A stretch of 64,000 nucleotides of DNA from an uncultured Gammaproteobacteria bacterium (GCA_963843735.1 CAWJLN010000008.1:164818-228817); one strand, 5' to 3'. Shown: positions 18,214 through 54,865, counted from the first letter of the stretch. Translations and numbers: made by a program. Notes: generated by a model not told the origin, from the sequence alone.

Positions 18214-18597
18214 GTGACGACGCTGGATGATTTCGGAGCCCCGGCTCGCGATCATCTCGCACACCCGCGCAATCACGGTGTCTTTCCGCCGGAAACCGCG
18301 GGGATTATTCTGAGCGGTGCAGCCGGGAGTGTTGCTTCCGGCGCCTTCGTTCGTTTTTATTTGCGCATGGAGGATGGGAGCATTGCCGCCGCGCGCTACG
18401 AAGTGCTGGGCGGGCCCGCGCTTATCGCCGCGGCCTCGTACCTGTCGGAACTGTTGCCGGGGCGGTCGGCCAGTCCCGAGGCGATTCCGCCCGGTTTGGC
18501 GCTTGCCGAAACACTCGGCCTGCCGCGCGTGGAGCACGGCGCTGCGCTCCTCGCCGAAGACGCCGCCCGCGCCTGCTTTGAATCGCAGAAAAGTTGA
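18214..18597 (+). CDS. IscU/NifU-N-like protein lacking all three scaffold cysteines
   Basis: 127 aa; GTG start 8 nt after iscS stop; aligns block-by-block with IscU (HPRNHG ~ NPRNVG; GAAGS ~ GAPACGD; LGGPAL ~ YGCGSA; [10 protein letters not shown] ~ HCSILAEDA) but every Cys position is Ala/Gly/Ser. Confidence 0.6.
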
Positions 18598-18625
18598 AAC
18601 GCCTCAAAAAATCCGGGAGACCCGA

Positions 18626-19468
18626 ATGAACGAACGCGAGCTGGAAGAGAGCATTCACACCGATCTCAAGGATCGGCTCACCTATTCGGGTTATCTCTGC
18701 CTCGATCGGCTGTTTTCGGCGCAGCATCCCTTGAGCGAACCCGAGCATCACGACGAGATGCTGTTCATCATTCAGCATCAGACCTCGGAACTGTGGATCA
18801 AGCTCACCCTGCACGAACTCGAGGCCGCCATTCGTCACGTGCAGAACGATCAGCTCGAACCCTGCTTCAAGATTCTTGCGCGGGTGAAGCAGATACAGAT
18901 GCAGCTTTTCAACCAATGGGCGGTGCTGGAGACACTCACTCCCACTGAATACGCCGAGTTTCGCGGCGTGCTCGCCAACGCTTCCGGCTTCCAGTCGGTG
19001 CAGTACCGCGCGCTCGAATTCATGCTTGGCAACAAGTCGGAAGCGCTGCTGCGCGTGTACGCATACGATCCCGAGGCGCACGCCTTGCTGGACGAGCTTC
19101 TGCATCGTCCGAGTCTCTACGATGAATTCCTGCGCTACCTGGCGCGGCGCGGCCTGCCCGTGCCCGGCGAACGCATCGAGCGCGACTGGGCGCAGCCCTA
19201 CGAAAGCCATCCCGGCGTAACCGCCGTTTTCAAGACCATCTACGAAGATTCCCGCACCTGGTGGGATGCCTACGAAATGTGCGAGAAACTGGTGGACGTG
19301 GAAGAATACTTTCAGCTCTGGCGTTTCCGCCACATGAAAACCGTCGAGCGGATCATCGGGCACAAGCGCGGCACCGGCGGTTCCTCCGGCGTGAACTTCC
19401 TCAAGCAGGCCTTGGACCTGACGTTTTTCCCGGAACTCATAGACGTGCGCACCGAAATTGGCGCCTGA
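18626..19468 (+). CDS. kynA: tryptophan 2,3-dioxygenase
   Basis: Start at ATG 18626 preceded by GGGAGA RBS (not the 18317 ORF start); 280 aa; conserved TDO blocks ([37 protein letters not shown]). Confidence 0.9.
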
Positions 19469-19545
19469 CGCACAGGTTTCTGCGCACGCTGTTGCATAAT
19501 GCGATGTCTTGTCGTGCAAGCGGCCTTTCCATAAGGATCTGAACC

Positions 19546-21024
19546 ATGCATGCTGCCGATACCGATGCCGATGTCCGCGATCCCGGGTTTGCCAATTTCT
19601 GGGGACATCCGCGCCCGCTCTGGATGCTGCTGGGCGTCACCGTTTTTTTCAATTTCGCCTTCTACGGTTTTCGCGCCTATCTGGCTCCCTACATCGAGCA
19701 ACAATTCTATTCCGGGCTGGGCGCGGCGGCGGCCCAGAAGCATGCCGATCTTCTGACCAGCGGTTTTCTGGCGCTGATGTATGCCACGCCGATCATCGGC
19801 GGCTATGTCGCCGACAAGATCCTCGGCGAGGCGCGGGCGTTGCTCATATCGCTGTGGCTGGGCGTAGTGGCGCTGGTTCTGATGGCACTGCCGACCCTGT
19901 TCGGTTTTGAAATCGGCATGGCCCTGTTTGCCTTGTCGGTCGGACTCAGCATTCCGTTGACGGTTCTGATCGGTCGCAACTACGCCAGGGGCGACTCCCG
20001 TCGCGAGGGCGGCTACACGCTGTTTTATCTCGCGATCAATCTGGGTGCTTTCATCGCGCCGTTCATCTGCGCGGATTTCATCGGTCATCGCTACGGCTAT
20101 CGCTGGGGTTTCATCGCCGCCGCCGCCGGCATGGCGCTGGCGGCGCTGTTGTTTCATCTGCGTCGTCATGTGTTGCGACCGGCGCTGCCCCGGGGCGAGC
20201 ATCTGCACGGGCCGATGGCCACCGTCTGGGTGCTGGCGGTGATTGCCGTACTGTTGTATCCCACGGCATTACTGCTGGATTTCCCCACGATATTGAGCTG
20301 GGCCATGTATGCGTTGATGGGCCTGCTGGTGCTGTATTTCATCGTGAATTGCGCGCGCCGCCGCGACTCCGTCCAGACGCAACGCTATTTCGCCTTGCTG
20401 CTGTTGTTCGTGGCGCTGGTGGTGTTCTGGGCGTTCAGCTTGCAGGGCGTGACTTCGCTCAATTTCCTCGCCCGCGACTACGTCAACGCGCCGTTCGATT
20501 ACACGCTGTTCCAGTCGGCCAATCCGCTCTTCATCCTGATTTTCGCACCGCTCATGGCGATACTCTGGCCGTGGTTGGACCGGCGCGGAAGAGATCCCTC
20601 GACGCCACGTAAATTCGGCATCGGTCTGCTGCTGGTGGCGCTGAGCTACGGCGTGCTGGTGCTTGCAATTCGTTATCTGCAAGGAGCGCACGGGCGCATT
20701 TCGTGGTGGCCGTTGGCCTTGTGCTATCTGCTGGCCACGCTCGGCGAGTTGGCGCTGTCGCCGATCGGCTATTCGCTGGTTGGTCAGTTGGCGGCGCAGG
20801 AAGACGCCTCGCTCGCCATGGGCGGCTGGTTTTTCGGTGTGGCTCTGGCCTATCAACTGGCCGGCTGGATCGCGACCCAGACTGCATCCGGTGCCGGCGC
20901 ACTGGGCGGCCTGGGCGATTACGCACATGTCTATGGCCTGTTGTTCTGGCTGGGGCTGGCTGTGGCCGCAGTGTTTCTTGTAGCCGCGCCGTGGATACGA
21001 CGTCTGATGCACGGCGTGCGCTAG
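19546..21024 (+). CDS. proton-dependent oligopeptide transporter (POT/PTR2 family, MFS)
   Basis: 492 aa; multi-TM; POT signature region FYGFRAYLAPYIEQQF and GGYVADKILG. Confidence 0.8.
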   Translation: MHAADTDADVRDPGFANFWGHPRPLWMLLGVTVFFNFAFYGFRAYLAPYIEQQFYSGLGAAAAQKHADLLTSGFLALMYATPIIGGYVADKILGEARALLISLWLGVVALVLMALPTLFGFEIGMALFALSVGLSIPLTVLIGRNYARGDSRREGGYTLFYLAINLGAFIAPFICADFIGHRYGYRWGFIAAAAGMALAALLFHLRRHVLRPALPRGEHLHGPMATVWVLAVIAVLLYPTALLLDFPTILSWAMYALMGLLVLYFIVNCARRRDSVQTQRYFALLLLFVALVVFWAFSLQGVTSLNFLARDYVNAPFDYTLFQSANPLFILIFAPLMAILWPWLDRRGRDPSTPRKFGIGLLLVALSYGVLVLAIRYLQGAHGRISWWPLALCYLLATLGELALSPIGYSLVGQLAAQEDASLAMGGWFFGVALAYQLAGWIATQTASGAGALGGLGDYAHVYGLLFWLGLAVAAVFLVAAPWIRRLMHGVR

Positions 21025-21216: not shown

Positions 21217-22305
21217 ATGAATGCGTCGCTCAACCTTGGCATGCAGGTCACCACCTTCGAGAATCCGATGAAGGTGGACGGTTTCGAGTTCGTGGAATTT
21301 GCAGCACCGGATCCGAAGCTGCTGCACGATCTTTTCCCGCGGCTCGGATTCACCGTTGTAGCCCGGCACAAATCGAAGAAAATCACCCTTTATCGCGAAG
21401 GGAAATGCAACTTCCTGGTCAACGAGGAACCGGGTTCGTTTGCCGCCGATTTTGCCGCGAAGCACGGTCCCTGCGCCTGCGGCTTTGCCATTCGTTTCTC
21501 GCGGCCGGGTGCCGAGGTGCTGCGTGCGACGCTCGCCAACGGCGCCGAGGAAATGACGGACAAGGCTTCGAGCCGCGCCATCAGCGTGCCGGTGATCAAG
21601 GGCATCGGCGGCTGCATGCTGTATCTCGTGGATCGTTACGGCGAAAATGGCGAGGTGTACGAAGACGAATACGAGTGGCTGCCGGGCGTGGATCGCAATC
21701 CCGAGGGTTTCGGCCTGACCTTTATTGACCATCTCACCCACAATCTGCATTTTGGCGAGATGGCAAAGTGGGCCGGCTACTACGAACGCCTGTTCAACTT
21801 TCGCGAGATTCGCTATTTCGACATCAAGGGCGCGAAGACCGGTCTCGTTTCGAAGGCGATGACCGCGCCCGACGGCATGGTACGCATTCCGCTCAACGAA
21901 TCCTCCGATCCGAAGAGCCAGATCAACGAGTATCTTGACGAATACAAGGGCGAGGGCATCCAGCACATCGCCTGCTTTACCGACAGCATTTACGAAACCG
22001 TGGAGGCCATGCGCAAGGCCGGCGTCGAATTTCTCGATACGCCCGATGCCTATTTCGAGATGGTGGACGAGCGCGTCCCGAATCACGGTGAGGATTTGGC
22101 GCGTCTCGCAAAGAACAAGATTCTGATCGACGCCGATACGGAGACGAAGAAGAAACTTCTGCTGCAGATTTTTACACAGAACTGCATCGGACCGATTTTC
22201 TTCGAGATCATCCAGCGCAAGGGCAACGAAGGCTTCGGCGAGGGCAACTTCACCGCGCTGTTCGAGTCCATCGAGCGCGATCAGATGAAACGCGGCGTAC
22301 TTTGA
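21217..22305 (+). CDS. hppD: 4-hydroxyphenylpyruvate dioxygenase
   Basis: 362 aa intact; two VOC-fold modules and C-terminal HPPD iron-ligand region (GIQHIACFTD ... FFEIIQRKG ... GFGEGNFTALFESIE). Confidence 0.9.
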   Translation: MNASLNLGMQVTTFENPMKVDGFEFVEFAAPDPKLLHDLFPRLGFTVVARHKSKKITLYREGKCNFLVNEEPGSFAADFAAKHGPCACGFAIRFSRPGAEVLRATLANGAEEMTDKASSRAISVPVIKGIGGCMLYLVDRYGENGEVYEDEYEWLPGVDRNPEGFGLTFIDHLTHNLHFGEMAKWAGYYERLFNFREIRYFDIKGAKTGLVSKAMTAPDGMVRIPLNESSDPKSQINEYLDEYKGEGIQHIACFTDSIYETVEAMRKAGVEFLDTPDAYFEMVDERVPNHGEDLARLAKNKILIDADTETKKKLLLQIFTQNCIGPIFFEIIQRKGNEGFGEGNFTALFESIERDQMKRGVL

Positions 22306-22324
22306 TATGCTGTACGCACCTGTA

Positions 22325-22779
22325 CCCCCTCTCCCTTTGGGAGAGGGTTGGGGTGAGGGTCAAAGATGGTTCAAGGCAAGAATACACCGCTGCCCACCAT
22401 TACAAAGACTGAAGCGAGGCAACTTCGGAGGAAGACTACAGACGCCGAAAATCAATTGTGGTATTACCTGCGTGCAGGTCGATTGGCGGGATTGAAGTTT
22501 AGGCGCCAGCATCCGGCACCGCCTTATATCCTGGATTTTTACTGCGACAGTGCGAAACTCGTTGTGGAGTTGGATGGGGCGCAGCATAGCGCTGGTGCTG
22601 ATTCGGCTCGCACGAATGCGCTGGAACGCAAGGGGCTGAAAGTTATAAGATTCTGGGACAACGATGCATTACTGGATACGCGAAGCGTGCTGGCGGTAAT
22701 TTTGGACGCAGCGCAAGCGAGAACCCTCACCCCAGCCCTCTCCCGGTGGGAGAGGGGGCAGGAAGATGGAGATGAGTGA
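22325..22779 (+). mobile_element. miniature element: DUF559 (Vsr/endonuclease-like) ORF flanked by about 36-bp inverted repeats, inserted between hppD and hmgA
   Basis: Left repeat ccccctctccctttgggagagggttggggtgagggt (22325-22360); right repeat accctcaccccagccctctcccggtgggagaggggg (22724-22758), the reverse complement with a few mismatches; each arm also contains an internal ccctctccc/gggagaggg hairpin. Confidence 0.6.
22366..22779 (+). CDS. DUF559-domain protein (very-short-patch-repair-endonuclease-like fold)
   Basis: 137 aa; core [21 protein letters not shown]...[17 protein letters not shown] typical of DUF559; the ORF C-terminus runs through the right inverted repeat and its stop overlaps the hmgA start. 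Confidence 0.6.
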
Positions 22780-24089
22780 AGAGATGAAAAACCCCGATTA
22801 CATGTCCGGTTTCGGTAACGAGTTTGCGACCGAGGCTTTGCCGGGCGCATTGCCGGTGGGGCAGAACTCGCCGCAGAAGGCGCCGTACGGACTCTACGCC
22901 GAGCAGCTTTCGGGCACGGCATTTACCGCGCCGCGTCATCTCAACCGCCGCAGTTGGCTGTACCGCATTCGTCCGGGGGCGATGCATAAACCGTTCGAGC
23001 TGCTGGACGAGGGGCGCTTCCACAGCCGCTTTGAAGAACAGCCAGCTACACCCAATCAATTGCGCTGGGATCCTTTCCCGCTGCCGAAAAAAGCCGTCGA
23101 CTTCGTGGACGGTTTGTTCACGCTGGCGGGCAACGGCGGCGCGGCCGAACAGGCCGGCTGCGGCATACATGTTTATGCCGCCAACCGTTCCATGCAGAAT
23201 CGCTTTTTCTACAATGCCGACGGCGAACTGCTTATCGTCCCGGAACAGGGCCGGCTGCGTCTGGCGACGGAACTGGGCGTGCTCGAGATCGCACCGCTGG
23301 AGATCGCCGTGATTCCGCGCGGTCTGCGCTTCCGGGTGGAACTGCCAGACGGGGAGGCGCGCGGCTATGTGGCGCGAGAACTTCGGGACGGCGCTGCGCC
23401 TGCCCGAACTCGGTCCCATCGGCTCCAACTCGCTCGCCAATGCGCGCGATTTTCTTTACCCCGTAGCGGCCTATGAAGACGAGGAAGGAAAGTGTGAACT
23501 CGTCGCAAAATTCCAGGGCCACCTGTGGTCGGCGGAGATGGATCATTCGCCGCTCGACGTCGTCGCCTGGCACGGCAACAACGCGCCATACAAATACGAT
23601 CTCATGCGTTTCAACACCATCGGCTCGATCAGCTACGATCATCCCGATCCCTCGATTTTCACGGTGCTGACCTCGCCGAGCGACACGCCCGGCACCGCGA
23701 ACATGGACTTTGTGATCTTTCCGCCGCGCTGGCTGGTCGCCGAGCACAGCTTCCGCCCGCCGTGGTATCACAGGAACGTGATGAGCGAATTCATGGGCCT
23801 GATCCGCGGCGAATACGATGCCAAGGCCGGCGGTTTCCTGCCCGGCGGCGCCTCGCTGCATAACTGCATGAGCGGCCATGGTCCGGACGCGGAAAGCTAC
23901 GAAAAGGCCGTGGCGGCGGATACATCGAAACCACAGCATGTTGCCGACACCATGGCCTTCATGTTCGAAACGCGCCGCGTGATTCATCCGACCCGCCAGG
24001 CGCTCGAAGCGCAGGAACTGCAAGGCGATTACCACGATGTTGGAGCGGAATCGAAAAACATTTCGATCCGGACCGGCCATGATTTCTGA
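22766..24089 (+). pseudogene. hmgA: homogentisate 1,2-dioxygenase, disrupted by a frameshift near 23,367-23,375
   Basis: N-terminal 200 aa ([25 protein letters not shown]...) lie in frame 2 (ORF 22766..23476). The remainder ([27 protein letters not shown] ... HDF) lies in frame 1 (ORF 23367..24089). Junction ...GEARGYV|(C)ENFG fits a 1-nt indel. Confidence 0.75.
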
Positions 24090-24112
24090 ACAAAACACAA
24101 AGGGATTGATGA

Positions 24113-25103
24113 ATGAAACTGGGAAGTTTGAAGGAGGGCGACCGTGACGGCGCATTGATCGTCGTCAGTCGTGACCTCGACCATGCCGTGCGCGCTGCGG
24201 ACGTTGCCGCCAGCCTGCGCGTGGCGCTGGAAGAATTGGGACGAATGCCGCGCCGCGAACTGAGCGGCGCTCTCGGATGCGTTGAATGCCGGCAAGGCGA
24301 AGGGTGCCTTCGACCTCGATCTTGCCGCACTTGCGGCGCCGCTGCCGCGAGCCTGGGAATTTCTCGACGGCTCGGCCTATCTGCCGCATGTCGAGCGCGT
24401 GCGCAAGGCGCGCGGGGTCGAGGTGCCGGATACCTTCTATACCGATCCGCTCATGTACCAGGCGACGAGCGCCGGTTTTCTCGGGCCGCGCGATCCGATT
24501 CCGGTCGCGAGCGAGGATTACGGCATAGACCTCGAAGCCGAAGTCGTGGTGGTGACCGACGAGGTACCGATGGGTGCCACGCCGGAGCAGGCCGGAGAGA
24601 AAATACGGCTCGTCGGTCTGGTCAACGATGTCAGCCTGCGTGGGCTGATTCCCGCCGAACTCAAGAAGGGTTTCGGCTTCGTGCAGAGCAAACCGCGTTC
24701 GGCGCTATCGCCGGTGTTTGTGACGCCGGACGAACTCGGCGATGCGTGGCGCGATTACAAACTCCATCTGCCGATGCTCACCCGCCTCAACGGCAATCGG
24801 CTGGGCGAGGCCGAGTGCGGCGTGGACATGCAGTTCAGTTTCGCGCAGCTCGTGGCACACGCGGCCAAGACGCGATCGCTTGCGGCCGGCACGCTCATCG
24901 GTTCCGGCACCATCGCCAATCAGGACACGGACAAGGGCGCCTCCTGCCTCGCCGAGCAGCGCACCGTGGAAACGTTGCGCGACGGCAAGCCGACGACGCC
25001 GTTTCTGAAATTCGGCGACAGCGTGCGCATCGAGATTCTCGACGCCGCCGGCAAGAGCATCTTCGGCGCGATCGAACAGACCGTGGAGCAATACAAGCCT
25101 TGA
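24113..25103 (+). pseudogene. fumarylacetoacetate hydrolase (FAH) family protein, disrupted by a frameshift near 24,260-24,285
   Basis: N-terminus MKLGSLKEGDRDGALIVVSRDL (FAH-family start) is in the frame of ORF 24113; the remaining about 270 aa (PLPRAWEFLDGSAYLPHVERVRKARG ... EQYKP) are in the frame of ORF 24282. Confidence 0.7.
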
Positions 25104-25743
25104 TCGAACTCTACGACTACTGGCGATCCTCGGCGGCGTATCGCATTCGCATCGCGCTCAATCTGAAAGGTCTCGCCGCACAGCAGCATTTAGTGAACCT
25201 GCGCGAAGGTGAACAGAAGAGTGCAAGCTATCGGCGCATGAACGCGCTTGGCCGCGTGCCGACGCTGGTGGACGACGGACAGGCGTTCACGCAGTCGCTG
25301 GCGATTCTCGAATACCTGGAAGAGCGCTATCCCGAGCCGCCCCTGCTGCCCGAAGATGTCGCCGCAAGGGCGCGGGTGAGGGCGCTCGCTCAACTCGTTG
25401 CCTGCGACATCCATCCGCTGAACAATCTGGGCGTGCTCAAATTCCTCGAGAACGAATTAAAGATAGGTGAGGAGAAGAAATTGATCTGGTATCGCCACTG
25501 GGTGGCAACCGGATTCGAGGCCCTGGAAACTTTGCTTGCCGGCGATACAGCGTAGCGGCCGTTTCTGTCATGGCGATACGCCGGGTCTTGCCGATGTTTG
25601 TCTTGTTCCGCAGATGTATAACGCGCGCCGCTTCGACTGCGATCTTCTCGGCCTATCCGACTATCGTGCGCATTGATGCCGCCTGCGCCGGGTTGGAAGC
25701 GTTTCGACAAGCTGCCCCCGAACGCCAGCCCGACGCGCAGTAG
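25100..25743 (+). pseudogene. maiA: maleylacetoacetate isomerase (GST zeta), two frameshifts (about 25,545-25,560 and about 25,640-25,655)
   Basis: TTG start overlapping the FAH stop; IELYDYWRSSAAYRIRIALNLKG (GST N-terminal domain) is in frame with ORF 24113..25555 up to ...LLAGDTA*. It continues in a second frame (GRFCHGDTPGLADVCLVPQMYNARRFDCDL) and a third (SAYPTIVRIDAACAGLEAFRQAAPERQPDAQ*). Confidence 0.7.
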
Positions 25744-29531: not shown

Positions 29532-31199
29532 TTATTCCGATTCAGCGCGGGCGATAAGCTCGCGCGCATGGCTGCGCGCGGATTCGCCGACGCGCACGCC
29601 GGCGAGCATGGCCGCGATCGCCTCCACGCGACGTTCGGCATCCAGCGCTTCCACCAGCGTCGTGCTCGCGCCGCTCTTGTTTGCCTTGCTGACGGCGTAA
29701 TGATGATCGGCAAGCGCCGCGACCTGTGGCAGATGCGTCACGCACAGTACCTGGCGCCGCGCGGCAAGCGCCTTGAGGCGCCGGCCGACGAGTTCGGCGA
29801 CGCGCCCACTGACGCCCGCGTCCACTTCGTCGAAGACCATAACCGGTACGCCCGCGGCGGCGCTTGCAAGCACCTCGACGGCGAGTGCAAGACGCGAGAG
29901 TTCGCCGCCGGAGGCGACCTGTGCGATGGGGCCGGGCGTTTGGCCGGCGTTGGTAGCGACCTGAAAAACGATGCGTTCGCGCCCGCCGGGCGGACAGGCA
30001 TCATCCTCCACCGGCGTAAGCGCCGCCTCGAAACGCGCTTGCGGCATGCCGAGTTCGCGCGCCGCCTTGGTAACCGCTGCGGCGAAGCGCGGTGCCGCCT
30101 CGGCACGTTTACGGCTCAAAACCGCCGCTGCGTCCCGATAGTCGTTCCTGACTGCCGCGAGCGCGCGTTCCAGCCGCGCAAGCCGGTCGCCGCCTTCGTC
30201 GAGATCGGCAATTTCCGTCTCGACGGTGGTTTGCCTGTCCGCAAGTTCGCCGGGCGAGCAGTCGTGCTTGCGTGCGAGCGCCTGATAGCGGGCGATGCGT
30301 TCGTTCAGCCATTCGAGGCGATTGGGATCCGCCTCGGCCTCGCGGCGGCGATGCAGTTCGCGCACCGCTTCGTCGGCAAACGCTTCGGCCTGGGCGAGCA
30401 GGCCGGTCGTCTCGGCGAGCCCGGCGCCCGCAGGCAGGCGCGCGAGCGCTTCGCGCGCGGTAGCCAATGCGGCGAGAGCCGGAGCCTCGCCTTCGTCCAG
30501 CGCCGCGAGCGCGGCTGCCAACGCTTCTTCGCTGCGTTCGTGGTGGCGCAGGCTGTCGTATTCGCCGTTCAATTCGTCGTACTCGTCTTCGCGCGGCGCA
30601 AGTTCGCCCAGTTCGCGTTGCTGGAAGCGCAGGAATTCCAGCCGCGCGTCGCGCCCGGCGACGGCCTTGCGCGCATCGGCGAGCGCGGCTTCCGCCTCGC
30701 GCACCGCATCGGCAGCAATCGTCACCTGCGCCGCAAGTGTTTCCGCTTGCGCGAAGGCATCCAGCAATTCGCGCTGATACGCAGGGCGGGCGAGGGCGTG
30801 ATGCTCGTGCTGGCCGTGGATTTCGACCAGCGGTTCGCCGAGTTCGCGCAATGCCGCAAGCGGCATCGGTACGCCGTTCACCCAGGCCCGGCTGCGCCCG
30901 TCGCTGCCCATCTGCCGGTGCAGCATCAGATGGTCTTCCAGCGGCAGATCGCGTGCGGCAAGTGCGTCGCGCAGCGCATTGTTTTCGGGCAGGGAAAATT
31001 CTGCACTGACGCTTGCGCGTTCGGCGCCGCCGCGCACCAGCGACGCCGCGCCACGATCGCCGAGCACGAGTCCCAGCGCATCTACCAGCAGAGATTTCCC
31101 TGCGCCGGTCTCGCCGGTGAGCACGGTGAATCCCGCGCCGGGCTCCATCTCCGCTTCGCTGATGACGGCGAGATCGCGTACCGCGAGGCGGGTCAGCAT
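29532..31199 (-). CDS. recN: DNA repair protein RecN
   Basis: 555 aa; Walker A GETGAGKS, long coiled-coil region, C-terminal ABC signature and Walker B (VMVFDEVDAGVSG). Confidence 0.9.
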   Translation of the reverse strand: MLTRLAVRDLAVISEAEMEPGAGFTVLTGETGAGKSLLVDALGLVLGDRGAASLVRGGAERASVSAEFSLPENNALRDALAARDLPLEDHLMLHRQMGSDGRSRAWVNGVPMPLAALRELGEPLVEIHGQHEHHALARPAYQRELLDAFAQAETLAAQVTIAADAVREAEAALADARKAVAGRDARLEFLRFQQRELGELAPREDEYDELNGEYDSLRHHERSEEALAAALAALDEGEAPALAALATAREALARLPAGAGLAETTGLLAQAEAFADEAVRELHRRREAEADPNRLEWLNERIARYQALARKHDCSPGELADRQTTVETEIADLDEGGDRLARLERALAAVRNDYRDAAAVLSRKRAEAAPRFAAAVTKAARELGMPQARFEAALTPVEDDACPPGGRERIVFQVATNAGQTPGPIAQVASGGELSRLALAVEVLASAAAGVPVMVFDEVDAGVSGRVAELVGRRLKALAARRQVLCVTHLPQVAALADHHYAVSKANKSGASTTLVEALDAERRVEAIAAMLAGVRVGESARSHARELIARAESE

Positions 31200-32888: not shown

Positions 32889-33595
32889 ATGACGACCATG
32901 CAATTTGCACAGCAGGGCTTGCAGGACAGGTCGGACGGCCCGCTGGGCGATTTGCGCTGCCGCGGTTTGCGCAGCACGGCGCTTGCGCGTCTGCCGGAAC
33001 CGTCGCGCGCGCTGGCGGCGCTCCTGCCCGAAGGCGCGGCGCTGCTCGAATCGCGCACGGCGCACCCCGGCGCAGGCTATTCCTTTGTCGCCTTTTCTCC
33101 GCTCGCGGAATTGCGCCTGCAAGCCGAAGGCTTGTTGCTGAGCAGACCGGGGCGCGCGACGGAAACGCTTGCGGGACCGCCACTGGCGCGGCTCTTCGCC
33201 TGTCTGGAAGTGGTGCGGACGATGCCGGGCGCGCCCGAAGTGCCTTTCGCTGGTGGCTGGGTCGGTTACGTTGCGCATGAGCTGGGCTGCCGGATGATGG
33301 ACACGGCGCCCGCCGCCGCAGCGCCGCCCGCGCGGCCGCCGGGGCCGCTGGCCGTGTTCCGTCTTTACCGCGACGCGCTGGTGGTGGATCATCGCGCGGG
33401 CACGGCAACCCAGTATGCGAGCGATTGGGGCGAAGGCGCGGATGCGGTCATGGCGCGCCTGCATCATGCGCGCGAACGACTCGGGGCCGACGCGCCGGAA
33501 ATGGCAACGGCGCCGAGCGTCGTAGATAAGCCGGTCGCGACGCTCGATGCCGGAGAGTTCGCCGAACGGCAGGCGGCACTGCAAAAGCTGATCCG
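32889..33595 (+). pseudogene. N-terminal fragment of a chorismate-utilising enzyme (aminodeoxychorismate/anthranilate synthase component I-like); recognisable similarity ends at about 33,595
   Basis: LPEGAALLESRTAHPGAGYSFVAFSPLAELRLQAEG matches the N-terminal region of PabB/TrpE-family enzymes; no chorismate-binding catalytic domain follows. The frame runs on into reverse-strand IS110 sequence (ORF ends 33671). Confidence 0.55.
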
Positions 33596-34500
33596 CGCCA
33601 GTTCCCGCAATCGCTTGCAGCGTTTCGGCGTTGGGAAACCGGTTGCGGTCGTCGCCAATCCACGCCAGTAGGCGCGCTGGTGTAAGTGGACCGCGTGAGC
33701 CGGGAAAACCCTTCCACCAGGCAGTCTCCGGGTGGGTCATAAACACGGCGGGGAGTTCGCGTTCAAGGCGGCTGCGGGTGTGGTGTAGTTCGCGCAGCAG
33801 CGGAATGAGGATTTGTACCTGAACGATATAACCTGAACTCACGGCAGCGCTGGGCATAGGGGCCTGCAATTGCGCATAAATCAGGTCAAGGCGATCCATG
33901 AAACGGTAATTGTTGCGCTTCAAGAACAACTTCAATTGGTGCTTTGTCAGCGTCCGCGCTTGTTCCGGGGTCGGATGGGCTTCCAAGAATGCGAGGCAGA
34001 TGAGAACTCTCCACATGAGCAAATAACCAATTCGCAGCCGGGAAGTACTGGTAGAGCAAGTAATTCAAGCGATTACCGAGCCGACGTTGGTCAACAATCG
34101 TTTTGTCCAATGCCCGTGCCAGTTCGCGCAGATGAAGGACGAGCGGACTGGAGCGCGTGAGCGGTCGGCAGTCTGGGTCTTTGAGGCGCAGCAGGTGTGC
34201 CAGCAAATACGCATCTGACGGGTCCGATTTGGAGTGGCGAGGCCGTCGGTGCGCGACCACCACGGATGGGGTGATATAGAGCGCCCACCCTTGCGCCAGC
34301 ATCCAATCGACCAGTAACCCGTCGGAGCGCTCAATGTTGAACAGAATATTGGCAGCACCGTAGTGGTTGACGAGACTCTCGAAGCGCTGAAAACCGTGGT
34401 TGGACTGCTTAATTTCCAACTGCTGGACAATGGTACCGTCGTCGTCGAGCAGACACAGGTCATGCTTTTCTGTTGCCCAGTCAATACCAAGATAGTACAT
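33596..34500 (-). mobile_element. IS110-family (DEDD) transposase/recombinase gene, truncated at its 3' end and frameshifted (N-terminal ORF 33886..34500, C-terminal part in the frame of ORF 32823..34022)
   Basis: N-terminus MYYLGIDWATEKHDLCLLDDDG (RuvC-like DEDD domain); C-terminal-domain motifs ...LLAWIGDDRNRFPNAETLQAIAGTG stop abruptly at about 33,596 where pabB-like sequence begins. Confidence 0.7.
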
Positions 34501-34519
34501 GGGAAGCTCTCCTTGCTCC

Positions 34520-34900
34520 TACAGCCAAGAATTGCTGCCACATCGCTACGCACATATGCAGGCTACGGCGCTCATGGCGCAACAAGTTTACGATACGCAT
34601 AGAGATGCCCCACATCAGCGAACAGTCGCCCATAGTTCTCGTGGAACGGCAAGCTAAGGGTTCTGCGGATGTGAGTGGCAGACAAGACAAGTATGCCTGT
34701 TGTCTCCTCTGTCCGGCACACGTAGTGAGCGGGCGCATTGCAGCCGACCTTGCAGTCGGCTGCCCGTCCGCACTGCGGACGGCGGCTAGGCTTGGGTCGC
34801 AGGGGTGACGGTGGCCGCTGTCACCAGTCTACACCCCGACCCAGCTTGGAATGAGCCTCGCTCATGACCCAAGCCTAGCCAGCGAGCTAAAACCTTGCCA
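34520..34900 (-). ncRNA. candidate structured non-coding region immediately 5' of the IS110 recombinase (bridge-RNA-like candidate)
   Basis: Cluster of perfect hairpins: gcagccgac/gtcggctgc (34740-34763), ccgtccgc/gcggacgg (34764-34782), ggtgac/gtcacc (34804-34825), and a 15-bp inverted repeat ggctaggcttgggtc (34784-34798) / gacccaagcctagcc (34866-34880); no convincing ORF. Confidence 0.35.
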
Positions 34901-35651
34901 CCTCACGCGCCGGTGGAGGCTTACAATCGCGTCCACGTGGCGCACCTGCGCCGCGATCCGGGGTGATGGCTGGGCGGTGGGCAGGAATGGTCCCGGCGAC
35001 ATGACGCACCTACTTTTCTTACCTTCTGTAAAATTTTCTCCTTTGCATAGCTGATTTTGGCTGCAAAACGATTCTCTGCTGACTCTCTTTGGGCGAATCA
35101 GTACACCTACGTCTTGTCTCATCCGAGGCACAATCTGGACGCAAATCCGGCCAGGTTTTCGATGACGCGGGGCAAATGACAGCGGGTGCTCCTTGAGAGA
35201 TGAAAGGCGGCCAGAAAACGGTTTTCTGGAAATTTTAGTGCGAGTCTTTGCGCCCGTAATTGGCGCCTCTCGTCTGGCGGCTTCTCCCAAGTCTGCCGCA
35301 CTTTCGCTCACCCTCGTACTAAAATGGATTTTTACCGCCAGTTTTTACGCTTTTTTGACGGTTCTTTTTCGCATAATGACCGCATTTTTACGGGTGTGTG
35401 GATTACACTTCTCGCGTAAGGGATGAAGCGAGCAAGGTTTGTAGACATTTGAGTATCGGTCATGCTAAAAGCGAAGATACTCGTCGTTGACGATGAGCCA
35501 GCCATTCGCAAACTGCTTCAGTACAGGCTGATGGGTTCCCTTAATTGCGCTGCTGGGCAAACTTCGTTTCATCTTGAACGAATCCGGTATCGGCAGACCA
35601 ATAGCCAATACCGGATTTGCCAAGCCGAATAAGTGAGGACGGGACAACAAT

Positions 35652-36128
35652 ATGGCTGGCGAACCGGTCATTATGGTACAGATCGCGGATCATGACTGGA
35701 CTCTGAATGCCGTTCATGCTGCTTGCCAGAAAGCCCGCCAGCGTCACTGGATGGTCGCTCTGGTCAGCCTGATTCCGGTGCAGCACACCGCCTGGCTGGG
35801 AACCGACTGGGGTTACATGAACATAAGTCCTCAAGCTGCGCGTGAGCTTGAGGACTATCAGGCGACAGTGCTGGATTATGGCTTGAACTGCGAGATCGTG
35901 CGCTACCAATATACGGACTTCACCGATGCGCTGGCGGATGCGGCAGATCATCTGAATGCCCGGATCGTCTTCGCCCATTTCCCGCATACGCTGATTCCGG
36001 GGTGGCGGCATTTCCTGCTTTGGCTGCTCAACCGGCGTTTGGCGGAACACCAGCGACAGTTGATTCAGCCACCCGTTCGCGTGCTCCACTCTGCGCCGAC
36101 GCTGGCACCCGAAATCGATCCTCTCTAA
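35652..36128 (+). CDS. hypothetical protein, weakly universal-stress-protein-like
   Basis: 158 aa; alternating hydrophobic beta-strand/helix pattern; the overlapping minus-strand ORF 35541..36089 is an alternative; low confidence. Confidence 0.3.
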   Translation: MAGEPVIMVQIADHDWTLNAVHAACQKARQRHWMVALVSLIPVQHTAWLGTDWGYMNISPQAARELEDYQATVLDYGLNCEIVRYQYTDFTDALADAADHLNARIVFAHFPHTLIPGWRHFLLWLLNRRLAEHQRQLIQPPVRVLHSAPTLAPEIDPL

Positions 36129-36232
36129 AGCGTCATCTTGACGGATTTTTGACGACTTACTCCGCCATTCTTGCAGATTTTTGACGCCTGCCTCTGCTAC
36201 AACTATCAGATCATAGGAAACGGAGACATTCG

Positions 36233-36322
36233 ATGGATGGGCTGTTCATGGGTCTGGCTGTGCTCTTTTTTGCCCTCTGCTGGGGCTTGATCGAACTGGC
36301 CGACCGGATTTCAGGAAGTTGA
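36233..36322 (+). CDS. 29-aa hydrophobic small ORF immediately upstream of kdpF (not in ORF track; below length cutoff)
   Basis: ATG 36233 with GGAAACGGAG RBS; MDGLFMGLAVLFFALCWGLIELADRISGS*; stop 36320-36322, one nt before the kdpF ATG. Confidence 0.35.
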   Translation: MDGLFMGLAVLFFALCWGLIELADRISGS

Positions 36323-36323
36323 G

Positions 36324-36416
36324 ATGAACTGGTTGTACCTCATCGCGGGTCTGGTGGCGCTGCTGCTGCTGATCTATCTGGTGGTCGCGCTGCTGAAACC
36401 GGAGTTGTTCTCATGA
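36324..36416 (+). CDS. kdpF: potassium-transporting ATPase subunit F
   Basis: MNWLYLIAGLVALLLLIYLVVALLKPELFS (single TM, KdpF-like length and C-terminal ALLKPE.F); stop overlaps kdpA ATG. Confidence 0.7.
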   Translation: MNWLYLIAGLVALLLLIYLVVALLKPELFS

Positions 36417-38166
36417 TTCCGATCCCTAACGGAATATTGCAGATCGCTTGCTACCTTGCCGTGCTGTTTCCTGCTGGTGAAGCCGCTTGGCGCGTATATG
36501 GCGAACGTCTACGCCGGGCGGTCGATAGTCAACCGGGTGTTTGCCCCGGTCGAGCGTTGGCTGTATCGTCTACTCGGCACGCGCGCCGATCTGGAGATGA
36601 ACTGGAAAACCTACGCGCTGGCGCTGCTGGTCTTCAACGCTTTGGGGCTGCTGGCGGTTTATGCCTTGCAGCGATTGCAAGGGTCGCTGCCGCTCAACCC
36701 GCTGCATCTCGGCGCGGTGTCGCCTGATTCAGCTTTCAACACGGCGGTCAGCTTTGCCAGCAACACCAACTGGCAGGGCTACGGCGGCGAAACCACCCTG
36801 AGTTACCTGACGCAGATGGCCGGACTGACGGTGCAGAACTTCGTGTCGGCGGCGACAGGAATGGCGATTTTGATCGCGCTGATTCGCGGTTTGGCGCGCC
36901 GCACGATGCAGACGATCGGCAATTTCTGGGTCGATCTGACGCGGACGATCCTCTACATCCTGCTGCCACTGGCGATCATCGGCGCGGTGTTCCTGGTGTC
37001 GCAAGGGGTGGTGCAGACTTTCGCCAGTTCCCAAACGGCGCAGTTGGTCGAGCCGGTGCGCGCTGCCAACGGCAGTACCGCCACCGAGCAGCAGATCGCG
37101 GTTGGCCCGGTGGCCTCGCAGGTCATGATCAAGCAGTTGGGCACCAACGGCGGTGGCTTCTTCAACACCAACTCGGCGCACCCTTTCGAGAACCCAACGC
37201 CGCTGTCGAATTTTGTCGAGCTGCTGGCGATCCTGCTGATCCCGGCGGCGCTGTGCTATACCTTCGGCCAAATGATCGGTGACACACGGCAGGGCTGGGC
37301 GCTGCTGGCGGCCATGACGCTGGTGTTCGTCGTGCTGCTGGGCGTGACCTATGCGGCGGAGCAAAGCGGCAATTCGCGCTTCCCGGCGACAGTCGATCAA
37401 AGCGCCAGCGCTGCCCAGTCGGGCGGCAACATGGAAGGCAAGGAAACCCGCTTCGGCATCGCCAATTCGGCGCTGTGGGCAACGGCGACGACCGCCGCGT
37501 CCAACGGTTCGGTCAATTCGATGCATGACTCGTATACGCCGCTCGGCGGCCTCGCCCCGCTGTGGCTGATCCAGCTGGGCGAGGTGATTTACGGCGGTGT
37601 CGGCTCCGGCCTGTACGGGCTGCTGATGTTCGCCATCGTGGCGGTGTTCGTCGCCGGGCTGATGGTCGGGCGCACGCCGGAATATCTGGGCAAGAAGATC
37701 GAAGCCTACGAGATGAAAATGGCGTCGATTGCCATCCTGGTGCCGCCGGTGCTGGTGCTGCTGGGGACGGCGGTCGCGGTGGTCGCGCAGCCGGGACGTT
37801 GCCTCAATCCTGAATACGCAGCCCGCCGCGCACGGCTTCAGCGAAGTGCTGTACGCCTTCTCGTCGGCGGGCAATAACAACGGCAGCGCCTTCGCCGGGC
37901 TGAACGCCAATACGCCGTTCTACAACATCGCGTTAGGGATCGCCATGCTGTTCGCCCGCTACTGGGTGGCGCTGCCGGTGCTGGCAATCGCCGGGTCGCT
38001 AGCACAGAAGAAGATCATCCCGGCCAGCGCAGGCACGCTGCCGACCCATACGCCGCTGTTCGTCATCATGCTGATCGGAATTGTGGTGGTCGTCGGCGCG
38101 CTGACGTTCTTCCCGGCGCTGGCGCTGGGGCCGATTGTCGAACATCTCATGATGGTGAGTCGCTGA
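36413..38166 (+). pseudogene. kdpA: potassium-transporting ATPase subunit A, two frameshifts (about 36,465-36,475 and about 37,795-37,805)
   Basis: N-terminus [18 protein letters not shown] in the frame of ORF 36413; the body ([13 protein letters not shown]...EMNWKTY...[27 protein letters not shown]...) in the frame of ORF 36456..37877; the C-terminal 120 aa ([34 protein letters not shown]...) in the frame of ORF 37729..38166. Confidence 0.85.
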
Positions 38167-38238: not shown

Positions 38239-40323
38239 ATGTCCCTTGAAACTCGTGCCAGCGCGCGACCGCTGTTCGATCCCGAAATCATCGGGCGGGC
38301 GGCGGTCGATGCCCTGCGCAAACTCGATCCGCGCAACCAACTGCGCAACCCCGTGATGTTCATCGTCGAGGTGGGTGCGGCCTTCACCACGCTGCTGTTC
38401 CTGCAAGCCGTACTGACTCCCTACGGCGAATTTCCGCCGCAGCGCGCGGGCTTCATTCTGGCGATTGCCGTCTGGCTGTGGTTCACGGTGATTTTTGCCA
38501 ACTTTGCCGAGGCGATGGCCGAGGGGCGCGGCAAAGCCCAGGCCGACGCGCTGCGCAAAGCTCGGCGCGACGTAACCGCCAGGAAGCTCAGCAGCCCGTC
38601 GCGCGACGGACAGGTCATGTCGGTTTCGGCGACCACGCTGCGCAAAGATGATCTGGTGCTGGTCGAAGCGGGCGACACCATCCCCGGCGATGGCGAAGTG
38701 ATCGAGGGCGTAGCCTCGGTCGATGAGAGCGCCATTACTGGCGAAAGCGCCCCGGTGATCCGCGAGAGCGGCGGCGACCGCAGTTCGGTCACGGGCGGCA
38801 CGCGTGTATTGTCGGACTGGCTGGTGGTGCGCGTCAGCAGCAATCCCGGCGAGGCGTTCCTCGACCGCATGATCGGCATGGTCGAAGGGGCGAAGCGCCA
38901 GAAGACGCCCAACGAGATCGCGCTCAATATTCTGCTGGCGGCGCTGACCATCGTTTTTCTGCTGGCGACAGTGACGCTGCTGCCCTATTCGATTTATGCC
39001 GTGACTGCGACCGGGCAGGGCAGTGTCATCACCGTGACGGTGCTGGTGGCGCTGCTGGTCTGCCTGATCCCGACCACCATCGGCGGCTTGCTCTCGGCGA
39101 TTGGCATCGCCGGGATGGATCGCATGATCCAGGCCAACGTGATCGCGGTGTCCGGGCGCGCGGTCGAGGCGGCGGGCGATGTGGACGTGCTGCTGCTCGA
39201 CAAAACCGGGACGATCACGCTCGGCAACCGGCAGGCGACCGACTTCCTCCCTGCGCCCGGTGTACCCATCGAGCAGTTGGCCGACGCCGCGCAAATTTCC
39301 TCGCTGGCCGACGAGACACCGGAAGGCCGCAGCATCGTCGTGCTGGCGAAGGAGAAATACAACCTGCGCGGGCGCAGCCTGGAAGATGCCACGTTCATCC
39401 CCTTCACCGCGCAGACCCGCATGAGCGGCATCAATCTGGATGGGCGCTGCATCCGCAAAGGCGCGGCGGACGCGGTGAAAGCCTATGTCGAAGACCTGGG
39501 CGGGCAGTTCCCATCAGCGGTGCAGACCTGCGTCGAGGACATCGCCCGCAAAGGTGCGACGCCGCTGGTGGTGGCCGAGAATCGGCGCGTGCTGGGCGTG
39601 ATCCAACTGAAGGATATTGTCAAAGGCGGCATCAAGGAGCGCTTTGCCGAACTGCGCCAGATGGGCATCAAGACCATCATGATCACGGGCGACAATCCGC
39701 TGACCGCTGCCGCCATCGCCGCCGAAGCCGGGGTCGATGACTTTCTGGCGCAGGCCACGCCCGAAGCCAAGCTCAAACTGATCCGCGAGCATCAGGCGGG
39801 CGGGCGGCTGGTCGCCATGACGGGCGATGGGACGAACGATGCTCCGGCACTGGCGCAGGCCGACGTGGCCGTTGCCATGAACACCGGCACGCAGGCCGCC
39901 AAAGAAGCGGGCAACATGGTCGATCTCGACTCCAACCCGACCAAGCTGATCGAGATCGTCGAGATCGGCAAGCAGTTGCTCATGACGCGTGGCTCGCTGA
40001 CCACCTTCAGCATCGCCAACGACGTGTCGAAGTATTTCGCCATCATCCCGGCCGCTTTCGCGGGAACGTATCCCCAGTTGGGCGCGCTTAATATCATGGG
40101 CTTGGCGACGCCGACCAGCGCGATTATGTCGGCAGTGATCTTCAACGCGCTGATCATCATTTTCCTGATCCCGCTGGCGCTGCGCGGTGTGCCCTACCAC
40201 CCAATGAAAGCCTCAACGCTGCTGCGCAACAATTTGCTGATCTACGGCCTGGGCGGGCTGATCACGCCATTCATCGGCATCAAGTTGATCGATCTGATTC
40301 TGGTCGCTCTGCATTTAACCTGA
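38239..40323 (+). CDS. kdpB: potassium-transporting ATPase subunit B (P-type ATPase)
   Basis: 694 aa intact; DKTGT phosphorylation motif ([13 protein letters not shown]), TGDN and [19 protein letters not shown] motifs. Confidence 0.95.
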
Positions 40324-40381
40324 GTCATGACCGTAGAAGCGATTTGCCAGGTCGCCCCTACAAAACAGAAAGCAACATATC

Positions 40382-41033
40382 ATGAATACCCGCATGAACA
40401 TCGATTGGCAGCAGGTCGTCCGCCCGGCGGCGGTCGCCCTGATCATCTTCACCCTCTTGACCGGGCTGCTGTATCCCGCGCTGATTACCGGGATCGCGCA
40501 GAAGGTGTTTCCGCATCAAGCCAACGGCAGCCTGATCACCGACGCCACCGGCAAGGTCGATCGGTTCGGAACTAATCGGCCAACAGTTCACTAACCCGGC
40601 TTATTTCTGGGGACGGCTGTCGGTGACTGCGCCCGTGCCCTATAATGCAGCGGCTTCGGCGGGATCGAACCTTGGCCCGCTCAATCCGGCGCTAATTGGC
40701 GCAAACGGCACAATTCAGCAGCGGATCGACACGCTGAAAGCGGCGGATCAGGCGGCGGGCGTGACCAATCCGCTGCCGATCCCGGTCGATCTGGTGACAG
40801 CTTCGGCCAGCGGGCTTGATTCGCAGATCAGTCCAGCGGCGGCGCACTATCAGGTGGCGCGGGTGGCGGCTTTGCGCGGCGTGAGCCAAGCAACCATTCA
40901 GGCGTTGGTAGACGAATTCACCGAAGGGCGCTGGTTAGGGCTGCTGGGCGAGCCGCGCGTCAATGTGCTGGAACTGAATCTGGCACTCGATCAGCGCTAC
41001 CCCCTGGCAGCAAAGTCGGCGGATAATCAATAG
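40382..41033 (+). pseudogene. kdpC: potassium-transporting ATPase subunit C, frameshift near 40,557-40,565
   Basis: N-terminal TM and [14 protein letters not shown] in the frame of ORF 40382..40594; the rest ([28 protein letters not shown]...[20 protein letters not shown]...VLELNLALD) in the frame of ORF 40623..41033. Confidence 0.8.
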
Positions 41034-43758: not shown

Positions 43759-44474
43759 GCAGCCCAGCCGACGACCAACCCCAATCGCCGCTGATCCTTG
43801 TCATCGAGGACGATCCCCAGATGCGGCGATTTTTGCGGGCGACGCTCACGACCAACGGCTATGCGTTTCTGGAAGCAACCACCGCACTGGAGGGCATCAA
43901 GCAGACGACTCTGCATCACCCCGATTTGATCATTCTGGATTTAGGACTGCCCGATCTGGATGGCCTGGAAGTGACCCGACAGCTTCGTGAATGGACAAAC
44001 ACACCGATTGTGGTGCTGTCCGCGCGGGATCGGGAAGGTGACAAGATTGCGGCCCTGGATGCGGGCGCGGATGATTACCTGACTAAGCCGTTCGGCACCG
44101 GCGAACTGCTGGCGCGGATGCGGGTAGCGCTGCGCCACGCAATTTTAGCCATCCAAGGTGACGATGAACCCGTTTTTAAGACCGGCGATTTACGTGTTGA
44201 TCTCGCTCATCGGCAGGTGTTTGTAAAAGATCAGGAAGTTCACCTGACACCCATCGAGTACAAACTGCTGCTGACGCTGATCCAGCACGCCGGCAAAGTG
44301 GTGACCCGTCGCCAGCTTTTGCACGACGTGTGGGGGCCAAGCTACGTGACCGAGACTCACTATCTACGCATTTACATGGCGCAGCTCCGCCACAAATTAG
44401 AAACCGATCCCGCCCGCCCTCGCTATCTCATCACCGAAGCTGGCGTCGGCTACCGCTTGAAAATCGAAATGTGA
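43755..44474 (+). CDS. kdpE: two-component response regulator KdpE (OmpR family)
   Basis: 239 aa; receiver domain (ILVIEDDPQMRRFL...DLIILDLGLPD) and winged-helix output; start overlaps kdpD stop. Confidence 0.9.
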   Translation: MSSPADDQPQSPLILVIEDDPQMRRFLRATLTTNGYAFLEATTALEGIKQTTLHHPDLIILDLGLPDLDGLEVTRQLREWTNTPIVVLSARDREGDKIAALDAGADDYLTKPFGTGELLARMRVALRHAILAIQGDDEPVFKTGDLRVDLAHRQVFVKDQEVHLTPIEYKLLLTLIQHAGKVVTRRQLLHDVWGPSYVTETHYLRIYMAQLRHKLETDPARPRYLITEAGVGYRLKIEM

Positions 44475-44865: not shown

Positions 44866-46311
44866 TCAACCTGCGTCGATGAGCCAGCGCCAAACTACCG
44901 CCAACGCTTCCACATCGGCGCGCTGATAGGCGCACGCTCGCGCCAGTGCCTCAGAATCATTCTCCATCCGCCACGCCTGATAATCGCCCCAGGCTTGCTG
45001 TGCGTTCGACCCGTCCGGCCAGCGATAGCCGAAATAGTTCGCCACTGATTTGATGCTGCGGCTGCGCACGGGCAGCATGACCTTCCGCTTGAAGGTCTGG
45101 AGCAGATCGTGCATTCGCGGCTGCAACACGGCGACCGCATCGGCGGGTGCGGTGCTACGCAGGCGCTCCTGCTCAAAGCCGCTCCAGTGATAGACCCGCC
45201 CGTCGAGCCGCTCGGCGGCCTTCGCTACCAAGCGCCAGCCCGCGTCGCTGTCCGGGATGATGAGGATGGCGCGGCCATCGGGCAAGGTCAACGCTTCGCC
45301 GTCGAAATAAGCCGAGACCACCGCCACCCGCACCTGCCCGTCGCCCTCTGACCAGCCGAAGCACCAGGGACGCCCCACCGCATCGCCGGTCATCTCGGTT
45401 TCGATGTCCAGCATCACCCCCGGCGGCAGATCGTCTATGACTTGATCGTCACGCCGGATCGGCTCCTGCTGTTGATGCGCGCGGGCGCTGTCGAGGTAGG
45501 CGCGGGCTTTGGCCGCCCCAACTCCGTCGAACTTCCGCAGTTCCGCCGCCGACAGCGCCAGAACATCGGCCAATGTCCTTATACCGTCTCGCTGGAAATG
45601 CGCCCAGGTCTTGCGCGTCAAATCCGGCAGCAGCGTGATGTCGCCCGCCGCCTCGGCGATCTGCTGGCAAGCGGTGTGCCAGCCGCACTGCTCGCAGTGG
45701 GACGCCAGAAAGATTGGCGGCGCGTCGGCCAGCGCCAGCGTCTCGGCGACCTGCTGGAACGCCCCGAACAGCCACGCTTCGTCGAACTCATGCGTCAGTC
45801 GGCGCAGCGGATAGCCGTCCGCATCCCGCCCCAGCCAAAATTCCCCGGCGACCGGCTCCGGCTGCACCGCTTGCAGCAGCCACAGGTAAAAATCGAGCTG
45901 GAGGCGGTCGGCGGGCTGTACCTGCGCCCGCTGCTTGATCTCGACCGGCACGTACCAGCCGCGACCGGGCACGCGCACCAATCGATCCACCCGCCCACGC
46001 GCCCGCACCGGCGGATCGAGCGGGACAGTGCGTTCCAGCGCGGCATTGCCGATGGCGTCCGCGCCCTGCGCCATCAACTCATGCGTGACCTGCGCCGCTT
46101 CCGCCCAGGAAGTCGTCGTAATGCGCCGCTGGGCACCCGCCGCAAACTGCACGACCTGCTCGTGCGCCAGCCCGGCCATTTGTGCCCAGGATGGCGGCGG
46201 CTCGTGATAGTCGGCGCGCTCGCCATGCTGATCAAGCCAGATGCGCCGCTGGCACTGATCGAGCGCCCGCAGCGTGTAGGCGGTGATGGTCGGCAGCCTG
46301 TCTCCGGTCAT
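44866..46311 (-). CDS. TM0106-type RecB-family nuclease: Cas4-like PD-(D/E)xK domain with four Cys, helix-hairpin-helix, and C-terminal RNase H-like (YprB-type) exonuclease domain
   Basis: 481 aa; N-terminal LRALDQCQRRIWLD (first Cys), catalytic GRVDRLVRV...YVPVEIKQ, Fe-S Cys triad HCEQCGWHTAC; HhH LADVLALSAAELRKFDGVGAAKA; acidic DIETEMTGD of an RNase H-like fold; start overlaps the stop of the upstream STAND gene (ATGA). Confidence 0.7.
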   Translation of the reverse strand: MTGDRLPTITAYTLRALDQCQRRIWLDQHGERADYHEPPPSWAQMAGLAHEQVVQFAAGAQRRITTTSWAEAAQVTHELMAQGADAIGNAALERTVPLDPPVRARGRVDRLVRVPGRGWYVPVEIKQRAQVQPADRLQLDFYLWLLQAVQPEPVAGEFWLGRDADGYPLRRLTHEFDEAWLFGAFQQVAETLALADAPPIFLASHCEQCGWHTACQQIAEAAGDITLLPDLTRKTWAHFQRDGIRTLADVLALSAAELRKFDGVGAAKARAYLDSARAHQQQEPIRRDDQVIDDLPPGVMLDIETEMTGDAVGRPWCFGWSEGDGQVRVAVVSAYFDGEALTLPDGRAILIIPDSDAGWRLVAKAAERLDGRVYHWSGFEQERLRSTAPADAVAVLQPRMHDLLQTFKRKVMLPVRSRSIKSVANYFGYRWPDGSNAQQAWGDYQAWRMENDSEALARACAYQRADVEALAVVWRWLIDAG

Positions 46312-52225: not shown

Positions 52226-52243
52226 GCCCGCGTTGATTCAGTT

Positions 52244-54849: not shown

Positions 54850-54865
54850 AACCATCTCTTAAACA

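Follow-up and report, generated by a model that had tools for sequence, protein, structure and literature searches.

Seven small indels in the homogentisate catabolic operon of an uncultured gammaproteobacterium: probable clustered consensus errors

Introduction

In the canonical cluster of Pseudomonas putida, the genes for homogentisate catabolism are organised as hpd/hppD with hmgA-hmgB-hmgC, and Pseudomonas aeruginosa strains carrying hmgA mutations or large deletions are pyomelanogenic. A frameshift caused by a small indel in hmgA was proposed to explain homogentisate accumulation and a brown diffusible pyomelanin in Xanthomonas fuscans subsp. fuscans 4834-R (PMC3826837), and 81 of the 137 pseudogenes of this strain are frameshifts (PMC3826837). 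In Vibrio anguillarum 531Ad, hmgA is disrupted by a 410-bp duplication and hyperpigmentation was shown (PMC6787238). Long-read assemblies are known to contain consensus errors that create spurious frameshifted 'pseudogenes' (PMC12007338). Here, we analysed a stretch of 64,000 nucleotides (hereafter the window) from an uncultured gammaproteobacterium (GCA_963843735.1, CAWJLN010000008.1:164818-228817). An initial annotation of this window had reported an intact hppD followed by frameshifted hmgA, FAH-family and maiA genes, and had predicted a brown-pigmented organism. We identified seven small indels in these three genes, which are probably locally clustered residual errors of consensus or assembly, as far as can be judged from the sequence.

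Results

The locus is a canonical tyrosine/homogentisate catabolic operon that comprises, in this order, genes for a POT transporter, HppD, a DUF559 protein, HmgA, an FAH-family hydrolase and MaiA. The gene for 4-hydroxyphenylpyruvate dioxygenase (hppD, 21217-22305, plus strand) is a single intact open reading frame (ORF) of 362 amino acids, as had been annotated. Its product matches TIGR01263 with 388 bits (cutoff 277, profile positions 2-353 of 353), it has the same length as its orthologues in two of the three closest relatives described below (L161 and L162), and its DNA aligns to the closest relatives with no indel. The gene for homogentisate 1,2-dioxygenase (hmgA, 22766-24082, plus strand) is disrupted and passes from frame 2 to frame 3 and back to frame 2, with ORFs at 22766-23476 and 23367-24089. 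When its two indels were taken out, the product reached 699 bits against TIGR01015 (cutoff 511, profile positions 3-429 of 429), and its best homologues, which are 432 amino acids long and named HmgA, were 89-90% identical. At the N-terminus of hmgA, positions 22787-22798 hold an in-frame 12-nt insertion (coding for KNPD) relative to L161 and L163, which is natural length variation and no lesion.

The FAH-family gene (24113-25103, plus strand) is also disrupted and lies in two pieces, 24113-24232 in frame 2 and 24264-25103 in frame 3. The repaired protein of 328 amino acids contains PF18288 (1-78 of 78) and PF01557 (5-213 of 214) and scores 22 bits against the fumarylacetoacetase equivalog TIGR01266 (cutoff 375); it is the probable fumarylacetoacetase of the pathway, judging from its conserved place between hmgA and maiA. 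The gene for maleylacetoacetate isomerase (maiA, 25100-25743, plus strand) starts with a TTG that overlaps the stop of the FAH-family gene and is disrupted, moving from frame 2 to 3 to 1; with its two insertions taken out, the product scores 297 bits against TIGR01262 (cutoff 171). The gene identities given by the initial annotation were right. HppD, HmgA and MaiA passed their respective TIGR cutoffs. Among the four enzymes of the route only HppD is encoded in an uninterrupted frame; two indels interrupt hmgA, three the FAH-family gene and two maiA.

The closest DNA relatives, L161, L162 and L163, were fetched via an HmgA search and are 85-89% identical to the window at the nucleotide level. 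A comparison with orthologous loci, which the initial annotation had proposed, revealed the same order in all three, with genes for the POT transporter, HppD (362 amino acids), DUF559 (137), HmgA (432), the FAH-family protein (328) and MaiA (212), all of them intact. The broken state in the window is therefore derived. Protein identity to the nearest HmgA relative reaches only 90%, and the tests for decay given below are thus indirect, based on the ratio of nonsynonymous to synonymous substitution rates (dN/dS) and on invariant alignment columns. The best HppD relatives are environmental metagenome-assembled genomes (MAGs) with identities of at most 88%, and an exact look-up of the HppD of the window returned no record. 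The host is best described as a Rhodanobacteraceae-like member of Lysobacterales.

To locate frame changes, the window was compared by blastx with the ORFs of 80 related loci. Consistent changes were found at about 23370 (frame 2 to 3, 77 subjects), about 24030 (frame 3 to 2, 42 subjects), 24240-24270, about 25560 (23 subjects) and about 25650 (22 subjects), with no further consistent frame change between 18.2 and 32 kb. The lesions were fixed by frameshift-aware protein-to-DNA alignment combined with direct DNA alignment to L161 and L163; a GC3 frame plot, intended for detection independent of homologues, gave too much noise at 60% GC to be of use. In total, seven lesions of 1-2 nt fall within 2.3 kb, all in the three genes that follow the DUF559 gene, and not four frameshifts in about 3 kb as had been counted. 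All three genes were indeed broken where this had been noticed, each being split over two or three frames.

In hmgA, the break seen earlier at about 23,370 is a +1 insertion at 23373 (plus strand; GTC GGC GAG in relatives, GTG G[C]GC GAG in the window), and a second lesion had been overlooked, a -1 deletion at 24034-24035 (assigned to 24034, plus strand; TAC CAC CAA TGC TGG in relatives, TACCA-CGATGTTGG in the window). The FAH-family gene, previously thought to be broken once at about 24,270, carries a cluster of three insertions at 24231-24263 on the plus strand instead, +1 at 24231, +1 at 24244 and +2 at 24262-63, all within 35 nt. Without them the gene reads LENWDDAAPRTAALSDAL, and the relative has LEDWDDDAPRLAALAEAL. 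A single frameshift at about 24270 was rejected, as it misplaces a conserved Trp and Pro, whereas the reading with three insertions is exactly collinear with the closest relatives; an alternative parse with more distant relatives gives a +1 insertion plus an inserted TGA codon. The cluster falls in the most variable stretch of the protein. The two breaks of maiA were confirmed as +1 insertions on the plus strand, one near 25550 (25544-25553), which adjoins a natural extra codon relative to L161, and the other near 25650 (25647-25650; CTC GCC CCG TAT in relatives, CTT CTC GGC C TAT in the window).

It is hardly conceivable that the genes function in spite of these shifts, by programmed ribosomal frameshifting, by transcriptional slippage or as split subunits. 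Seven such events in three genes would be required, the sites share no slippery motif and contain no long A/T tract, the orthologues are single uninterrupted ORFs, and hmgA is split inside its catalytic fold. Programmed recoding is effectively excluded, given that there is no common site motif and that the shift is not conserved in the orthologues.

If the lesions were genuine, the inactivation would be very recent, with hmgA lost, the FAH-family gene and maiA then useless and frameshifted, and hppD functional. HppD would still make homogentisate from 4-hydroxyphenylpyruvate, which without HmgA would be excreted and would auto-oxidise to pyomelanin, and the FAH-family hydrolase and MaiA would have no substrate and be free to decay. 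The logic leading from hmgA loss with an intact hppD to homogentisate accumulation and pyomelanin is sound, and a natural hmgA frameshift with brown pigment is known in the same order from X. fuscans 4834-R (PMC3826837), with the hmgA disruption of V. anguillarum (PMC6787238) as a further case. We regard a genuine inactivation as possible but not probable. Disabling lesions relative to intact orthologues, as expected of pseudogenes, are present. Relaxed purifying selection, however, was not observed. The dN/dS values of the window against L161 and L163 were 0.087-0.124 for hmgA, 0.096-0.108 for the FAH-family gene and 0.142-0.147 for maiA, compared with 0.089, 0.070 and 0.149 between intact relatives and with 0.066 for the intact hppD against L161. 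The values of the broken genes are essentially the same as those of the intact relatives.

Across 71 relatives, 122 columns of the HmgA alignment are invariant, and the repaired HmgA conforms at every one of them. Departures from such invariance numbered one in MaiA, four in the FAH-family protein and two in the intact HppD, and for proteins of the kdp operon (see below) they amounted to 0/97 in KdpA, 0/219 in KdpB and 0/16 in KdpC. Seven neutral indels in 2.95 kb should bring several-fold more substitutions, and they imply a long neutral period, yet neither dN/dS nor the invariant sites revealed such an excess.

The spectrum of the lesions also differs from the mixture of nonsense mutations, deletions and insertions expected in natural pseudogenes. 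None of the 14 lesions in the window (see below) is a nonsense mutation, no nonsense codon was left after removal of the indels and no larger deletion was found among them. The 12 lesions that could be resolved against homologues comprise 11 insertions and one deletion (p=0.006 against a ratio of 1:1, and 3e-4 were insertions 40% of events). Such a bias is contrary to the deletion bias generally reported for bacterial pseudogenes, which Mira, Ochman and Moran are said to have described in 2001. In addition, three of the seven events lie within 35 nt of the FAH-family gene (p ~0.014); three independent insertions at this distance would be unlikely under genuine loss, and the cluster looks like a local consensus problem.

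The damage does not single out homogentisate catabolism. At least 14 lesions, spread over eight genes, were found in the whole 64 kb. Using alignments to relatives taken from metagenomes, we identified two +1 insertions in kdpA (36413-38166), at 36467 and 37800, with profile positions 7-431 and 437-548 in separate ORFs, and one +1 insertion at 40557 in kdpC (40337-41033), which separates profile positions 2-46 from 70-182. The other genes of this group, kdpB (38239-40323), kdpD (41065-43758) and kdpE (43755-44474), are intact. A SNF2/ResIII helicase gene with a DUF3883/NOV_C domain (56692-60094, minus strand) is interrupted twice by a +1 insertion, at about 59212 and 56778. Its full-length homologues have approximately 1158 amino acids, and most of the best ones, with identities of up to 85%, belong to Chloroflexota, so that the helicase gene was probably acquired horizontally. 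An IS110-family transposase remnant (about 33600-34500, minus strand) has a frameshift near 34020, and its C-terminus seems to be truncated. Finally, a class I methyltransferase ORF (61249-61785, minus strand) is without the N-terminal half of its domain, and the missing S-adenosylmethionine (SAM)-binding motif, GLEIGAAAHNPF, is located in another frame at the 3' end of a glycosyltransferase ORF (61820-63850); this implies another net +1 shift near 61870. The breaks in the transposase, helicase and methyltransferase genes are all net +1 by frame.

Thus, indels only, several per gene and in otherwise conserved coding sequence (two in hmgA, three in the FAH-family gene, two each in maiA, kdpA and the helicase gene, one in kdpC), occur irrespective of pathway, as would be expected of an artefact. 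With the same type of lesion present elsewhere, no relaxed selection, no nonsense mutations and insertions prevailing by 11:1, the profile is unusual for pseudogenes that decay naturally, whereas patchy consensus errors of the indel type typically look like this. The step from 'not uniform error' to a real loss, which the initial annotation had taken, is not supported, since five or more further genes in the window have lesions of this type and the repaired genes show neither relaxed selection nor nonsense mutations.

When the main ORFs of the window were scanned against Pfam, full-length matches were obtained for dacB, xseA, putA, sdaA, queA, tgt, yajC, secD, secF, suhB, smpB, bamE, fur, recN, nadK and others, and the clean genes outside the damaged ones cover more than 45 kb. 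The housekeeping genes listed as intact by the initial annotation are intact, including putA and secD; recN is likewise a full-length ORF (29532-31199), but it lies downstream of the operon and not upstream. Uniform random sequencing error was rejected, in agreement with the earlier argument: at least 7 of the 14 events fall in some 2.3 kb of the 64 kb (p ~5e-5 under uniform placement), and no event is found in the first 23 kb (p=0.006).

This distribution is one of several observations that weigh against a technical origin. The even spread or homopolymer context expected of an artefact was not found: the events are clustered and mostly outside homopolymers, the longest run affected is TTT->TTTT, and approximately half of the insertions duplicate a neighbouring base, a context that misfits the classic homopolymer error signature of 454, Ion or Nanopore sequencing. 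The damaged genes are all conditionally dispensable, and the core housekeeping genes are spared. The pattern is also functionally coherent, with hmgA, the FAH-family gene and maiA all dead, and kdpA together with kdpC, as real operon decay would look. The last two of these features, together with the clustering, would speak for a genuine loss, in which the damage would be confined to dispensable genes (with about 17 kb of core genes and many others intact), would be coherent by operon and would form part of a wider pseudogenisation of accessory genes in the lineage, such as kdpFABC, the defence helicase and the IS transposase. The avoidance of core genes is a weak argument, because dispensable genes make up over half of the window; about five independent clusters would miss the approximately 17 kb of core genes by chance with an estimated p of ~0.2. 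In its full form, the reading that all lesions are real would demand that a Rhodanobacteraceae-like lineage has very recently lost homogentisate degradation, the Kdp pump and the defence helicase, has kept hppD as a pyomelanin producer, and has done so by a nearly exclusive +1 mutational process that left no substitutions. We consider this unlikely.

Approximately half of the inserted bases stand immediately 5' of GC(G/C) (sites 23373, 24246, 24265, 25550, 37800 and 56778), although their exact placement is ambiguous. This context could be a signature of the process that generated the insertions.

Another possibility is that the consensus is chimeric, derived from co-existing strains in a metagenome-assembled genome and collapsed into a sequence that is present in no single cell, with genuine indel variants or divergent alleles of the accessory operons in some of these strains. 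Since every close relative is an environmental MAG, the window may also derive from one, and the lesions affect accessory or island genes, which vary most between strains; the position of the FAH cluster in the most variable stretch of its protein points in the same direction. However, such a chimera is a sub-case of the technical explanation from which only reads could separate it. Taken by itself, we think it improbable.

The DUF559 endonuclease-like gene between hppD and hmgA (22366-22779, plus strand) is intact, encodes 137 amino acids (NF007294 DUF559, E 1e-29) and overlaps the start of hmgA. A PF04480 gene of 137 amino acids is found at the same position in L161, L162 and L163, and dN/dS values of 0.14-0.24 indicate purifying selection. 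A 36-nt inverted repeat flanks the gene, with a left arm at 22325-22360 that contains the hairpin CCCTCTCCC-NNN-GGGAGAGGG and a right arm at 22723-22758, inside the 3' end of the ORF, that has the same CCCTCTCCC/GGGAGAGGG hairpin. The arms are complementary at 89%, and the motif is found only twice in the window against none expected by chance. A recent insertion that broke the operon was considered and rejected, because relatives with an intact operon have the gene in the same place, of the same length and under purifying selection. For the same reasons, the gene looks like a domesticated or stably resident small element.

Directly upstream of hppD, at 18314-21024, lie kynA (tryptophan 2,3-dioxygenase, TIGR03036) and the gene of the POT-family peptide transporter. 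The linkage of POT and hppD is kept in the relatives, which suggests a neighbourhood for the catabolism of peptides and aromatic amino acids. Farther downstream, an anthranilate-synthase-I-like gene (32889-33668) keeps its N-terminal domain only and abuts the IS110 remnant (together 32889-34500). Between this remnant and kdpA (34500-36400), approximately 1.9 kb with a GC content of about 55% contain short ORFs only and gave no Pfam, Rfam or tRNA match; tRNA and Rfam scans of the whole window likewise found nothing. The region from 44866 to 64000 has a GC content of 50-57%, compared with 60-68% elsewhere, and its content is island-like or defence-like, including genes for a PD-(D/E)XK/RNase_H_2 protein, a trypsin-TPR protein of 1020 amino acids with an adjoining Trypco1 gene, HNH, MerR, PIN and Uma2 proteins, the helicase and the glycosyltransferase. 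From 49.7 to 56.6 kb, several ORFs gave no hit to Pfam.

Discussion

Based on the types of the lesions, their presence in other genes and the lack of other signs of decay, we infer that the seven indels have a technical origin. They would be indel errors left behind in the consensus or assembly and gathered in poorly supported patches, possibly as a result of low or strain-heterogeneous coverage of accessory regions, or of stretches left unpolished in a long-read or hybrid assembly. Any technical origin must involve such patchy quality, because the events are strongly non-uniform. It is probable that hmgA, the FAH-family gene and maiA are functional in the organism and that no pyomelanin phenotype follows. 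The brown-pigment phenotype is unproven and conditional on the indels being genuine at the level of the reads.

The two outcomes would have different implications. If the indels are artefacts, about one in eight genes of the window would be mistaken for a pseudogene, and the genome would give wrong metabolic predictions, such as those for tyrosine catabolism and high-affinity K+ uptake. If they are real, the lineage would join those that have naturally lost hmgA while keeping hppD intact, and would be predicted to form a brown pigment; this would be of some ecological interest, as pyomelanin affects oxidative-stress tolerance as well as iron and electron shuttling, and the mutation spectrum consisting almost of insertions alone would be odd and worth attention.

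Compared with the canonical cluster of P. putida, the same four enzymatic steps are encoded together in the window. However, the hydrolase is an FAH-family protein of about 330 amino acids (PF18288 plus PF01557) and not of the TIGR01266 type of about 420 amino acids, and a DUF559 gene with flanking inverted repeats is located between hppD and hmgA. A close natural counterpart is X. fuscans, a member of the same order in which hmgA is likewise frameshifted by a small indel and the remaining genes of the tyrosine pathway are present. On the other hand, X. fuscans has one frameshift, in hmgA only, with the other pathway genes seemingly functional and the phenotype found in all strains, whereas the window has seven lesions over hmgA, the FAH-family gene and maiA, which are known from sequence alone and whose reality is doubtful. 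The cases of V. anguillarum and P. aeruginosa resemble the situation predicted here in that loss of HmgA with a functional HppD leads to hyperpigmentation, but they rest on single, experimentally verified lesions (a duplication and large deletions) and not on multiple 1-nt insertions.

The window also resembles the errors described for long-read and hybrid assemblies, which are indel-only, affect a gene several times and create apparent pseudogenes from coding sequence that is otherwise conserved (PMC12007338). In this comparison, a point that speaks against a technical origin is that assembly errors are usually assembly-wide and often homopolymeric, whereas those in the window are patchy and mostly outside homopolymers. 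The loss of hmgA with production of pyomelanin is a known phenomenon, and the locus represents no new kind of biological system either way.

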